64,000 bases of DNA, taken from the IMG/VR virus record IMGVR_UViG_3300029989_000005; one strand, 5' to 3'. The stretch is from a virus. The notes under the pieces are model-generated. The model was not told the DNA's origin, made no database searches, and saw nothing but the letters and a program-made list of their open reading frames with translations. Positions 29,080 through 46,232 of the stretch are shown one piece after another. Made by a program: the position numbers and the translations under genes. The number at the start of each line of letters is the position of its first letter. Position 1 is the first letter of the stretch.

Positions 29080-29397
29080 TTAAGGATTTAAAACCAAGTC
29101 TTTAGATGAATCAGCTTTCCAAGTACCATCGCCATTATTTCCATCGCTGTTTATTTCAAACCTTGCCCATAATTTTTCATCCGTCTTCCTGTAATTCATC
29201 CGTTCCTGTAGTTTTTTTGTAGCCTCTTCTTTGGCTTTCTCCAAAGTGGTATTTTTAAGAGCAACAGGTTCTATATAAGGATAAGAGCCTTCAAAGCAGC
29301 TAAATCTTATATCACCCTCGAAATTATCAGGAATTGTTGTAAAGTATTTGTCATTTCTACTATTATTATTGCTTTCGAATATTTTTAATTTTTTCAT
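29080..29397 (-). CDS. putative internal head protein (MKKLKIFE leader)
   Basis: N-terminal octapeptide shared with three tandem neighbours. Confidence 0.65.
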   Translation of the reverse strand: MKKLKIFESNNNSRNDKYFTTIPDNFEGDIRFSCFEGSYPYIEPVALKNTTLEKAKEEATKKLQERMNYRKTDEKLWARFEINSDGNNGDGTWKADSSKDLVLNP

Positions 29398-29409
29398 AAT
29401 AATTTACAT

Positions 29410-29649
29410 TTAATCATTTGACACTGTTATATCAAAAACCTCACCAACAATGTCTTTTTCTTGTGGATGGCTTACAGCCCACCCTAATCCCAATATATAA
29501 TCAACATCTTTCATTGTTGCATTATTAAACTCTATTTTATCATCAGTTTCATGTAATTTTTGCAAAAAAGATTTTAATGTATCATTATTAAAATCCTTTA
29601 TATTTTTGGATTCTGAATTATTGTTTTCGAATATTTTTAATTTTTTCAT
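29410..29649 (-). CDS. putative internal head protein (MKKLKIFE leader)
   Basis: Shared N-terminal octapeptide. Confidence 0.65.
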   Translation of the reverse strand: MKKLKIFENNNSESKNIKDFNNDTLKSFLQKLHETDDKIEFNNATMKDVDYILGLGWAVSHPQEKDIVGEVFDITVSND

Positions 29650-29664
29650 AATAATTTATATTTT

Positions 29665-29916
29665 TTAATTGTAATAGTTTCCATCATTTTTCGCTTTAGT
29701 AGCTATTTCCTTGTTGTATATAGCATAAGCTTTATACGCAACCTCTTTAACGGTCAAATTATCAAAGCAATCCATTACATAGTCATAATGGTACATTACA
29801 ACATCTTCAGCAGTCTTTTTATCAGTTCCTGATGAAATCAATTTTGCAATAACCTTTTCTTTTGTAATATCTGTATCAGGGTTAGCATCACCTTCAAAAA
29901 TTTTAAGTTTTTTCAT
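29665..29916 (-). CDS. putative internal head protein (MKKLKIFE leader)
   Basis: Shared N-terminal octapeptide. Confidence 0.65.
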   Translation of the reverse strand: MKKLKIFEGDANPDTDITKEKVIAKLISSGTDKKTAEDVVMYHYDYVMDCFDNLTVKEVAYKAYAIYNKEIATKAKNDGNYYN

Positions 29917-29921
29917 AGTAC

Positions 29922-30335
29922 TTACTTATGAAACCCTAAAGCCTCGTTTTTAGTTTTAAAGAAATTAATAAGATTATAATTAGGTGCTTTTGTAAATGAC
30001 ATCCAAAGATAATAATCAGGATTGACATTACCACCCCAAATTGACAAATCCCTTTGAGGTTTATATCCCCAATAACAAGGTATTTTAAATAATGTAGTAC
30101 CATCTTTAACTTTTATACCTTCCTGTTTATCAGCCCATTTAGCTATATTAGCCACATTGGAATCAAAATGATCATCACCTTGCTTATCGGTAAGATACCC
30201 TCTAAATTTATAGGGATCACCCGCAATTTGGGTTGTCATTCCTGAGCCAGGAGAGTATGATGTCCATAATGAATTTTGTTGAATATAGACAACATCTGTT
30301 GGATTCCAATCCTCGTTTATTTTTAACTTTTTCAT
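29922..30335 (-). CDS. putative internal head protein (MKKLKINE leader)
   Basis: Variant of the shared N-terminal octapeptide. Confidence 0.65.
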   Translation of the reverse strand: MKKLKINEDWNPTDVVYIQQNSLWTSYSPGSGMTTQIAGDPYKFRGYLTDKQGDDHFDSNVANIAKWADKQEGIKVKDGTTLFKIPCYWGYKPQRDLSIWGGNVNPDYYLWMSFTKAPNYNLINFFKTKNEALGFHK

Positions 30336-30838
30336 ATGGTTGATGTACTAATTAATTTTTGATTATTTACTTTTCTTTGAAGAAATCTCTTAATTCTTAA
30401 TAAAAATGCTAAAGGCTTATTTATTTTGTAGTAATAAATATTCTCGAAAAAATCCTTAATTGTTATATTCTCGTTATTAACAGTTATAATTGAATCACCC
30501 GACAAGCATTTACCTGATTGTCTACTTGATAAAAATATATTAAATCTATAGCTTTCAAATTGTCTAAGCACTCTTGATTGATATGGTCTTAATTTTATCT
30601 GTTGAATACCATCATCTGTCATACAATATGCATAATTATTAGCAAAGTATAGACATGATGCTTGTAATTTAGCAAGCTCTGTTATTTCTTTATCGGTATA
30701 TTGGAAATGTAAATAACCTTTCCTTTTCCTTATATCTTTAAGATAAAATGGGTTGTTCCTTGGTAAGTATCCCGTTTTATTATATTCTTTTAATATTTCT
30801 TCTACCCTTTCGGTACTGTATATATTTTCGTTAGCCAT
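30332..30838 (-). CDS. terL: terminase large subunit N-terminal fragment (gp17-like, 110 aa) fused to a 58-aa split-intein N-fragment
   Basis: YFANNY, LRPYQ, NIFLSSRQSGK (Walker A) followed directly by intein block A CLSGDSII (30508), then a stop. Confidence 0.88.
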   Translation of the reverse strand: MANENIYSTERVEEILKEYNKTGYLPRNNPFYLKDIRKRKGYLHFQYTDKEITELAKLQASCLYFANNYAYCMTDDGIQQIKLRPYQSRVLRQFESYRFNIFLSSRQSGKCLSGDSIITVNNENITIKDFFENIYYYKINKPLAFLLRIKRFLQRKVNNQKLISTSTI

Positions 30839-30936: not shown

Positions 30937-32154
30937 TTACCAAAGCGAATTAAAAGTCACTAAAGATGAAGGTATTTCTTGTAATCCTATTGCTGATAAT
31001 ATTCTATTTAAATATGCTAAATAATTAGTCATAAATTGTACATCGTATGATACAGGAAACTTCTGCAAAAATTGAGGTGGTATTACACCTATCGGAAAGG
31101 CAAACACATCTGTTGATGCATTTGATGTCCAATACCATTGAACTTTATCACCCGATTTTATTATAGAATATTTTTGCTTTATCTCATTAGATGACATGGA
31201 AATCTCATTATTATATTGTGCTATTGCTCTCATATATGCCTGAGAACCCGCAATTGTCTTTATTTCATTGTTTGAACTTTCAAGAATGTATTTACCCAAA
31301 TTGTTTACCCTTTGTGCGGGTAGGACATTTATTATGTCAGTATGTATAAATTCTTCCTTTACTTGCTTTACTTTTTCTATTATTACCGCATAATCTATAT
31401 TATCTACTTTTATAATATAGTCAATAACAATCTCTTTCAATTTATTACGTATAAATTTTGGTACAGATGCCTGATTTATTTCGAGACCAACGGCTTTTAC
31501 ATTTTCATATCTTCCAAAAGTATTACCATCAGCCCATAATGATTCCTTAATATACCTTTTTTTAGCGGTAATAAGGAATTTACCAACTATTTGCTCAAAT
31601 GTTAAGTTAAGACATGGCTTACCCGATATTCTTGTCTGTAAACCATTATGTAAGCCGATAAAATACGAAAGCATATGACCAAGTGCGGGATATATGTCAA
31701 GTTCGTTTAATTTTAATATGAAATCTTGAACGCTACCTTTATAATCAGTATTCTTAATAATTTTGCCATAATTAACAAATATGGAATCAGTATCACCATA
31801 TATAACAATATCACCTGTCACAGGTATTACCTTTGTTATTCCAAGTTGTTTATGAACATCGTATATGTATGGAAATCTTTCCTTAAAGTACTTATTGAAC
31901 CAAAATTTGGTATATTTAATTACATAAGCTGATTGTGTTGATATTGATGAGGCAACATATTTGTCATATAGTACAAAATTACTAAAGCCAAATACACCAT
32001 ATATTGAATTGAGGATTTTTTTCAAAGATAAATCCTCACTCTTTTTGGTAAATCTCAAGTTTTCAAGACGTATAATTTCATCTTTAATTTCTTGTACTGT
32101 CACCTCTTGTCCTTGCTTAAACCTGCAGTACTGTAAACCTAAATTATATACCAT
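30937..32154 (-). CDS. family B DNA polymerase, C-terminal half (gp43B-like)
   Basis: Motif B KKILNSIYG, motif C YGDTDS, KKRY; no exonuclease domain and no motif A. Confidence 0.88.
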   Translation of the reverse strand: MVYNLGLQYCRFKQGQEVTVQEIKDEIIRLENLRFTKKSEDLSLKKILNSIYGVFGFSNFVLYDKYVASSISTQSAYVIKYTKFWFNKYFKERFPYIYDVHKQLGITKVIPVTGDIVIYGDTDSIFVNYGKIIKNTDYKGSVQDFILKLNELDIYPALGHMLSYFIGLHNGLQTRISGKPCLNLTFEQIVGKFLITAKKRYIKESLWADGNTFGRYENVKAVGLEINQASVPKFIRNKLKEIVIDYIIKVDNIDYAVIIEKVKQVKEEFIHTDIINVLPAQRVNNLGKYILESSNNEIKTIAGSQAYMRAIAQYNNEISMSSNEIKQKYSIIKSGDKVQWYWTSNASTDVFAFPIGVIPPQFLQKFPVSYDVQFMTNYLAYLNRILSAIGLQEIPSSLVTFNSLW

Positions 32155-45112: not shown

Positions 45113-45694
45113 TTACACTTTGTTTTTATTATTTATTTTATAAATTGTTTTTGTTAACCAATATTCAAATTTGGTTAACCAATTTTTAGATTTTATGTTT
45201 GAATAATACAGTTCAAATATTGGAATGTGATTGAATTCTGAGGTTTCTTTGTTGAGTATTTCTATACCAGTATCGGCAGTTACACAGTTATGCACTTTGA
45301 TACCATTAGCAACGAATACATGCATTTTGTTACTTATAGTTAAGTCAAATACTCTATGAAATCCCAATATTTTTTCTATCGATTTTACCTCCTCACAGAA
45401 TCCACCTGAATTTATAACACTATATTTGCTGCCTGTATGCATATCAATTTTGTGTTTGAGATCAGCAATAGAAAAAAATTTATCATTTCCTTTTAACACC
45501 TCTGTAACCTGATATATAGGAAGTATATGGTCTTGGGTGGCATATAAGGTTTTACCACCATATGTTTCAAGTTTGTATAATCTTTTTATACCTGTGTAAT
45601 GAACATGGGTTATTTTTGACTCTTGATCTTCATCTATGTTTACAAAATACCCAAATTTACTTATGTTATAAGACCTATATTCCTTATAAATCAT
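45113..45694 (-). CDS. extein-less split-intein adapter: IntC (136 aa) directly fused to a second IntN (57 aa)
   Basis: Block B LYATQDH, block F VFDLTI, block G FVANGIKVHN, then block A CVTADTGI at 45286; start set at ATG 45694, downstream of a hairpin. Confidence 0.85.
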   Translation of the reverse strand: MIYKEYRSYNISKFGYFVNIDEDQESKITHVHYTGIKRLYKLETYGGKTLYATQDHILPIYQVTEVLKGNDKFFSIADLKHKIDMHTGSKYSVINSGGFCEEVKSIEKILGFHRVFDLTISNKMHVFVANGIKVHNCVTADTGIEILNKETSEFNHIPIFELYYSNIKSKNWLTKFEYWLTKTIYKINNKNKV

Positions 45695-45703
45695 AAAATA
45701 TTC

Positions 45704-45734
45704 TAAGACCTCTATTAATTTAATAGAGGTCTTA
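45704..45734. promoter_or_regulatory. perfect hairpin immediately upstream of the intein adapter start
   Basis: taagacctctattaa/ttaatagaggtctta. Confidence 0.55.
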
Positions 45735-45752
45735 TATACACATATTTTTAAA

Positions 45753-46232
45753 TTATTTAACAATATTATCATACGCCAATTTATAATCCTCGTTAGTCAT
45801 TTCGAAGATTGTTTTAATTCTATCCTTTTTAACTATTGATATTATCTCACTATCAGACATATATCCTACCTTGCTAATATATTCAGATATTTTTTTATAT
45901 GCATCACAGCTATCATTTGAAACATAAAAATTGTTGGTTGCTGTTTTATTACCTTCACCCGTACTAAATTTAACGGCTACTTTGTAATAAAAATCGCTAT
46001 CATCACCAACAACACCCTCAATTTCTTCCTTCAATATCTTTTTGAATTCAAGTTGCTTTCTGTTTTCAATAGATATACATTCTTTACATATCATATCAAG
46101 ATTTATAAGTTCCTTGAATATATTTTCAGCATCTGTATAATTTAGTGCGGGAATATAATATTCTTGTGTCTTTGGTACTATTCCGAAGTCCGTTTTGGTT
46201 TCTTCTTTAATCAGTGCTTTGAAGTACATCAT
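45753..46232 (-). CDS. DUF4494-like protein
   Basis: YFKALIK...TQEYYIPALNYTDAE and YYKVAVKF pattern typical of this Bacteroidota family. Confidence 0.55.
   Translation of the reverse strand: MMYFKALIKEETKTDFGIVPKTQEYYIPALNYTDAENIFKELINLDMICKECISIENRKQLEFKKILKEEIEGVVGDDSDFYYKVAVKFSTGEGNKTATNNFYVSNDSCDAYKKISEYISKVGYMSDSEIISIVKKDRIKTIFEMTNEDYKLAYDNIVK

Follow-up and report, generated by a model that had tools for sequence, protein, structure and literature searches.

Analysis of a peat phage genome indicates that its terminase TerL is probably broken twice after the Walker A lysine by two abutting, allelic split inteins, which would be removed in two trans-splicing steps through an adapter protein that leaves no trace in the product. 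The first piece would be residues 1-110 of TerL followed by an N-terminal intein half (TerL-N-IntN1), the second an adapter made of the C-terminal half of the first intein and the N-terminal half of the second (IntC1-IntN2), and the third the remaining half of the second intein fused to the TerL ATPase domain (IntC2-TerL). The genome is a linear IMG/VR phage record of 125 kb (IMGVR_UViG_3300029989_000005, here G000) with 29% G+C, rated 83% complete, and the window considered here, a stretch of 64,000 nucleotides, represents the reverse strand of that record. The gap in the record is covered by two IMG/VR relatives of 167 kb (G001) and 150 kb (G002), both rated 100% complete.

The adapter gene and its parts are located in the window as follows:

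45113..45772, minus strand: adapter gene (P0003), 219 aa plus stop, containing a helix, IntC1 and IntN2; taken from the ORF list
45695..45772, minus strand: N-terminal amphipathic helix, residues 1-26; from conservation and AF2
45287..45694, minus strand: IntC1, residues 27-162, a Hint domain without block A; from Pfam, PDB profile matches and Foldseek
45284..45286, minus strand: Cys163 (TGT), which doubles as the +1 nucleophile of intein 1 and residue 1 of IntN2; read from the sequence
45116..45286, minus strand: IntN2, residues 163-219, comprising block A (CVTADTGIEI), then the IPIFELYY strand and an amphipathic helix at the C-terminus

An earlier note on this DNA had described the ORF at 45113-45694 as an intein C-fragment ending in His-Asn and fused directly to a Cys-led block A. 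Translation and codons bear out the fusion, and the layout proposed for the gene stands, but its start does not, since the real start is the ATG at 45772, upstream of the ATG at 45694 first assumed, which adds 26 residues to give 219 aa. Reading from ATG 45694 on the minus strand yields a 136-aa IntC with block B ATQDH, block F VFDLTIS and block G ANGIKVHN; directly after its Asn, with no spacer, follow CVTADTGIEI...IPIFELYY and a lysine-rich amphipathic end, with the stop 57 aa on. The junction codons on the minus strand are His at 45290-92, Asn at 45287-89 and Cys at 45284-86, and the catalytic residues are T79..H82 in block B, D143 in block F and H161-N162 at the end of block G. The number of host-protein (TerL) residues in the adapter is zero, Asn162 being followed only by the 57-aa IntN and the stop. 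IntC1 lacks the host C-extein that is fused to the C-terminus of a TerL IntC, and IntN2 is preceded by IntC1 and not by the host N-extein that characterizes an IntN.

The 26 additional N-terminal residues form an amphipathic helix that is kept in every homologue; AF2 predicts it from residue 2 to 27, and 15 of its positions are invariant among 4 homologues. IntC2-type proteins start with a helix resembling that of the adapter, which is the counterpart of the helices starting IntC2 and other IntCs of the same family, and we infer that it may act as a zipper at the split site. The adapter gene is surrounded by replication and neck genes and is distant from the genes for the other TerL pieces. 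Its close homologues (218-225 aa, 69-74% identity, full-length coverage) share its neighbours, being preceded by a DUF4494 gene and followed by a 177-aa gene and gp13. In the window, the DUF4494 gene (45753-46232, minus strand) lies directly upstream of the adapter, and its 3' end overlaps the adapter by 20 nt. The adapter is also found right behind a DUF4494 gene in two distant lineages (L056 and L057), so that this linkage holds even for adapters only 25-31% identical, and the two genes may be linked in some way, for instance by co-transcription.

Profile and structure comparisons identify IntC1 as a Hint domain. Residues 24-136 matched positions 34-155 of the 155 in the Pfam profile Intein_splicing (PF14890) with an E value of 3e-6, at a score below the gathering score, and a profile of the adapter family searched against the PDB matched residues 26-128 of the gp41-1 intein (E 2.4e-11, the best match) and residues 3-113 of the engineered atypical CatC fragment 6dsl_B (E 4e-5). 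The solved inteins were matched from about residue 26 to their end, indicating that block A is missing from IntC1. Moreover, the AF2 monomer model of the adapter (pLDDT 84, pTM 0.74) was matched by Foldseek to many intein structures with a probability of 1.0. Blocks B, F and G are present in IntC1 and block A is absent, and the catalytic set is in place, with the block B His, the block F Asp, the terminal His-Asn and the +1 Cys.

The junction between the two intein halves is real, as the earlier note had supposed. At least 23 contigs encode the identical adapter protein, the His-Asn-Cys codons (45284-45292) are spanned without any difference by contigs of four additional peat metagenome runs, and homologues with identities as low as 20% also have the HN|C join. 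An assembly chimera as the source of the join is rejected by the contigs and the four additional runs. An exhaustive HMMER search covering 1.84 billion representatives returned about ten clusters, at 50% identity, of stand-alone adapters of 198-232 aa from peat and other metagenomes. Scanning IMG/VR gave no match with the adapter sequence alone and only the two relatives already known with the adapter alignment, and a single metagenome scan gave generic matches to intein block G and no new adapters.

Conservation within the adapter family follows the residues expected of two inteins. In an alignment of 15 adapters (20-74% identity), H82, D143, H161, N162 and C163 are invariant, and the motif PIFELYY...LDK.EY.L.K of the tail is well kept. 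Between this phage and L007, separated by a dS of about 1, dN/dS is 0.21 for IntC1 and 0.08 for the IntN2 tail, which makes IntN2 the most conserved part of the gene. These values indicate that the adapter is under purifying selection.

The other pieces of TerL expected for such an arrangement are encoded elsewhere in the same record, the first gene below, with its two parts, in the window and the last gene 3.2 kb past its end:

30332..30838, minus strand: TerL-N-IntN1 gene (P0002), 168 aa; homologues with 57-82% identity have the same IntN1 type
30509-30838, minus strand: TerL N-extein, residues 1-110, ending in the Walker A sequence SSRQSGK
30335-30508, minus strand: IntN1, residues 111-168 (58 aa), CLSGDSII... 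and a basic amphipathic helix
G000:C1:39500-40588 (= L004:3501-4589), minus strand: IntC2-TerL ATPase gene (P0007), 362 aa; found by intein profile

This last gene is the one that the earlier note had predicted, an IntC2-TerL-C protein whose IntC ends in HN followed by Ser or Thr, here HN|S. It encodes an N-terminal helix and a block-A-less IntC2 ending in DILSHN146, followed by S147 and ITSGIFIMWY..., which resume the T4-type Walker A region and lead on into the ATPase domain, after which the gene stops. TerL-N-IntN1, the adapter and IntC2-ATPase are all present in the 125-kb record, once each, and lie about 15 kb and 22 kb apart; each IntN also occurs once there, and a single copy of TerL-N-IntN1 is found. 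In each of the complete genomes G001 and G002, likewise, TerL-N-IntN1, the adapter, IntC2-ATPase and the nuclease are all encoded exactly once, and their adapters, with 49% and 29% identity respectively, both have HN|C[VI]T.DT. Genes for IntC1-TerL-C or TerL-N-IntN2 were found in neither G001 nor G002, which leaves no cognate two-piece route in these two genomes.

Profile searches of the phage record with Pfam Terminase_6C and Terminase_6N gave no match, these profiles being too insensitive; the ATPase piece surfaced through an intein profile and the nuclease piece through the protein of a relative. The TerL nuclease domain is a separate intein-free gene of 278 aa outside the window, at about G000:C1:18012-18848 (minus strand; L025:1450-2286, minus strand) with about 21 kb between it and the ATPase piece. 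G001 and G002 show this split as well, and the ATPase and nuclease domains are still fused in more distant relatives (P0021-P0029). The family B DNA polymerase is also encoded by two genes, with no intein (window 30937-32154 and L004:1165-2643, both on the minus strand). Its C-part, with the motif B/C region, is directly upstream of TerL-N, an order kept in G001 and G002, and its N-part is about 40 kb away, beside the IntC2-ATPase region. Directly downstream of TerL-N, at 29080-30335 of the window (minus strand), four tandem genes of 105, 79, 83 and 137 aa all start with MKKLKI(F/N)E and constitute a paralogous family, and G001 has a similar gene (MKKLKVFE) at the position downstream of TerL-N. 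The T4 late-promoter core TATAAATA was absent within 150 nt upstream of all four TerL-related genes, and the promoters of this clade may differ from those of T4.

The partner of IntN2 is indicated by a two-piece relative (L021), in which the TerL-N gene ends in SRQTGK followed by CVTFDTKVKIF..VPIFEIHY..LDKVEYMLFK and abuts a downstream TerL-C gene of the IntC2 type. The adapter tail is 41% identical to this IntN (P0127) over 51 aa, aligned from Cys1 (E 4e-11), and the reading of the tail as a true TerL-type IntN, already put forward from the DNA letters, is confirmed. IntN2 combines Cys1 and block A with homology to an IntN that follows the Walker A lysine of TerL, and it is the predicted cognate of IntC2. 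In a tree of IntC sequences, 20 of the 21 TerL-attached IntCs form one clade (SH-aLRT 98) that leaves the adapter IntCs outside; the exception, P0029, from the two-piece intein of L022 with a Vsr-like gene between the halves, pairs with the adapter P0143 (95). This topology indicates that two allelic intein types occupy the TerL site and that three-piece phages carry both in tandem.

Rates of evolution divide the four halves in the same manner. Pairwise identities among G000, G001 and G002 are 56/34/40% for IntN1 and 43/25/27% for IntC1, compared with 65/42/46% for IntN2 and 74/51/49% for IntC2, so that evolution is faster in IntN1 and IntC1 than in either half of intein 2. In addition, a TerL-N with an IntN1-type fragment has been seen only in genomes also carrying an adapter. 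A single intein in three pieces is rejected, as two complete sets of intein blocks are present, and a circularly permuted or cyclising (SICLOPPS-like) intein is unlikely, as IntN2 is orthologous to the partner of the IntC2 clade and IntC1 is outside that clade.

Complex prediction was weakly in favour of the pairing of IntN1 with the adapter. The IntN1 piece modelled against the adapter plus the IntC2 piece scored 0.43, with 0.00 for the best of 3 controls, a result graded as weak support; the runs agreed in at least 49% of contacts, with a partner pLDDT of at least 67. The mark applied to this score is reached by 58 of 80 solved complexes and by 2 of 110 mismatched pairs, and passing scores of 0.60 or less include only 7 of the 80 solved complexes and both mismatches that passed. 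Solved split-intein complexes exist, so that the score may partly reflect likeness to them.

The resemblance among the halves raises the question of whether the adapter is needed at all. IntN1 might splice directly with IntC2 and make TerL in one step, leaving the adapter as a dispensable competitor, buffer or regulator, a role that would include that of a timer. The AceL-TerL IntN can take the place of the GOS-TerL IntN (PMC11766414), so TerL-type IntNs can be promiscuous, and this promiscuity is what suggests a direct reaction, related TerL IntNs being interchangeable in vitro. Besides, IntN1 and IntN2 have the same length and layout, and all four halves are members of a single family, that of atypically split TerL inteins. 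We nonetheless regard direct cross-splicing as rather unlikely, because a dispensable gene would hardly hold its His, its Asp and its HN|C invariant down to 20% identity with dN/dS of 0.08-0.21, and because the confinement of IntN1-type TerL-N to genomes with an adapter and the limited similarity of IntC1 and IntC2, which have little in common beyond blocks F and G, also speak against it. When the adapter was replaced in the complex prediction and IntC2 kept, IntN1 scored 0.00, although this is a weak test.

The tail of the adapter could also act on its own IntC. In the AF2 monomer its strands are confidently structured (pLDDT 84-91), which suggests that IntN2 may dock in cis on IntC1, where it would compete with IntN1, and perhaps that an autoinhibited or self-cleaving form of the adapter is possible. 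The order of IntC before IntN is that of permuted inteins, and the earlier note had offered as its alternative a self-paired permuted intein acting as a decoy or regulator. IntN2 would then fold back on IntC1 of its own or of a second adapter chain, and the protein would be a decoy or cleave itself at Asn162, with no role in TerL maturation. This reading turns out to be very improbable: the orthologue of IntN2 is the partner of IntC2-type fragments and not of IntC1, one Cys cannot serve a given active site as both its first and its +1 residue, so that pairing in cis could at most lead to cleavage, and TerL-N-IntN1 and IntC2-TerL would be left without cognate partners in the complete genomes.

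The arrangement that we favour is a relay of two trans-splicing steps. In the proposed mechanism, IntN1 would dock on IntC1, aided by the amphipathic helices at the split site; the helices at the C-ends of the IntNs and the N-ends of the IntCs probably form a zipper there, because they are conserved and amphipathic. Class 1 splicing would then transfer TerL-N to Cys163 as the +1 nucleophile, giving TerL-N-IntN2, after which IntN2, with Cys163 now serving as Cys1, would dock on IntC2 and TerL-N would move to Ser147 of the third piece. The final product would restore ...SRQSGK-SITSG... with zero adapter residues. The reverse order would be equally good, with IntC1-IntN2 and IntC2-TerL first giving IntC1-TerL, to which TerL-N-IntN1 would then be joined, and Cys163 would serve as +1 nucleophile or as Cys1 nucleophile depending on the route. 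The fixed order of splicing steps suggested earlier finds no support, since either order yields the same product. Similarly, no support was found for an AND-gate or timer role on packaging, and it seems unlikely that the adapter is made at a different time or level, such that completion of the ATPase would be a three-input AND gate or timer instead of a frozen accident.

A relay presupposes that both inteins are active. The halves and their helices might merely act as a non-covalent scaffold that keeps TerL-N, the adapter and the ATPase piece in one complex, with one or both inteins dead for splicing, and this clade does tolerate multi-subunit enzymes, its TerL nuclease domain and DNA polymerase already being separate intein-free genes; in the L028/L029 lineage, moreover, a Gln occupies intein position 1. 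In the G000, G001 and G002 clade, on the other hand, all the nucleophiles and catalytic residues are conserved (Cys1 of IntN1, the block B His, the block F Asp, HN, Cys163 and the HN|S of IntC2), and a Hint pair of about 200 residues sitting in the Walker A loop would probably keep ATP from binding, so that a scaffold appears decidedly improbable.

The relay may have arisen through homing, as relatives retain endonuclease genes beside the adapter. L029 has the order TerL-N-IntN, Vsr-like endonuclease gene and adapter, and L028 is 99.9-100% identical to it save for a 1090-bp deletion inside the endonuclease gene, located as follows:

L028:9800-10000 compared with L029:1506-2595: deletion site, with most of the Vsr-like gene between TerL-N-IntN and the adapter removed

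The two contigs thus appear to capture homing-endonuclease decay in a snapshot. A Vsr/DUF559-like gene is also directly upstream of the adapter in L049 and L026, and L026 has in addition a GIY-YIG Seg-like gene directly downstream. The layout of a fractured gene is therefore found in relatives (L022, L029, L026 and L049) and not in the window, where 15 kb separate IntN1 (30.3-30.8 kb) from IntC1 (45.1-45.8 kb) and no endonuclease gene is adjacent. From these comparisons, IntN1 and IntC1 look like one mobile cassette. The TerL-N IntN of the L028/L029 lineage (L029:770-1333; L028:9237-9800) starts with GK|QITTTSQ, having Gln for Cys at intein position 1, and the adapter of the same lineage (P0137) keeps HN|C. 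The canonical first step of class 1 splicing cannot run with this residue, and the lineage would need a class 2-like route or does not splice.

We infer as the most economical origin the homing of the intein 1 cassette into a TerL that was already split. TerL would first have been split by intein 2, and a cassette of IntN1, a Vsr-like homing endonuclease and IntC1 would then have homed into the GK|C junction of the TerL-N-IntN2 gene, where the upstream half of the target of the cassette was intact. The endonuclease would subsequently have decayed and been lost, as is under way in L028 compared with L029, and rearrangements would have scattered the TerL pieces. The idea of one intein invading the junction of another, first raised from the sequence of the window, fits both the IntC tree and the endonuclease genes immediately beside the adapter in relatives. 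The adapter would be kept because TerL cannot be completed without it, which describes a ratchet and not necessarily a regulatory device.

The components of this system belong to known themes. AceL-TerL, GOS-TerL and the consensus Cat-TerL are atypically split terminase inteins (Thiel, 2014; Bachmann and Mootz, 2015, as reviewed in PMC11766414; PDB 6DSL), and the peat phage inteins resemble them in having a phage TerL as host, a short IntN with only block A, a long IntC with blocks B, F and G, and a +1 Cys. The sizes of these known inteins are 25-37 aa for IntN and 104-115 aa for IntC. They differ in being two-piece systems, in which the N-extein carries IntN and the C-extein carries IntC, whereas IntC1 of the adapter has only the IntN of another intein as its "C-extein", and the halves of the peat phage also bear amphipathic helices of about 25 aa at the split site. 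Fractured genes, in which split-intein halves flank a free-standing homing endonuclease gene (Dassa et al., 2009, PMC2677866), include a gp17-like terminase locus with a 122-aa IntC missing only motif N1 (PMC2677866). They are matched by the order TerL-N-IntN, Vsr-like endonuclease and IntC in L022 and L029, and by the Vsr/DUF559-like gene directly before the adapter in L026 and L049. In contrast to fractured genes, there are here two breaks at one residue position, a window without endonucleases, scattered pieces and an adapter whose C-extein is another IntN.

The closest parallels in layout are engineered. Multi-fragment ligation has employed a middle piece IntC(a)-X-IntN(b) with two split-intein pairs that do not cross-react (PMC7090010), and in such ligation, as proposed for the adapter, two trans-splicing reactions connect the middle fragment to the pieces on either side; the engineered system is man-made and X is a real cargo, whereas the adapter is natural, its X has zero length and it would be traceless. 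Synthetic three-piece inteins (Sun et al., 2004, as cited in PMC11766414) differ in that the adapter system comprises two complete Hint domains, each split in two, and according to a 2023 preprint the inteins found to date are encoded by either one gene or two (10.1101/2023.01.30.526203). Our search of the literature for natural IntC-IntN proteins and for tandem, extein-less or three-piece natural inteins returned only engineered systems, within a coverage in which subscription journals were sparsely represented. The adapter combines two known themes, atypically split TerL inteins and fractured genes, in a layout absent from the literature searched.

If the relay works, the adapter would be, as far as the literature searched shows, the first natural protein made only of intein halves and the first natural case in which the +1 nucleophile of one intein is Cys1 of the next. 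It would also provide a pair of split inteins with short IntNs that have probably been selected not to cross-react, a property wanted for one-pot multi-fragment protein ligation and labelling, and two naturally orthogonal atypical split inteins together with a traceless adaptor would then be usable by protein engineers, the roughly ten adapter clusters representing many natural variants. For the phages themselves, a working relay would mean that the Walker A site of TerL is a hot spot where selfish elements can accumulate, and that an essential enzyme has come to depend on an extra gene that is absent from the final product, as in a constructive neutral ratchet.
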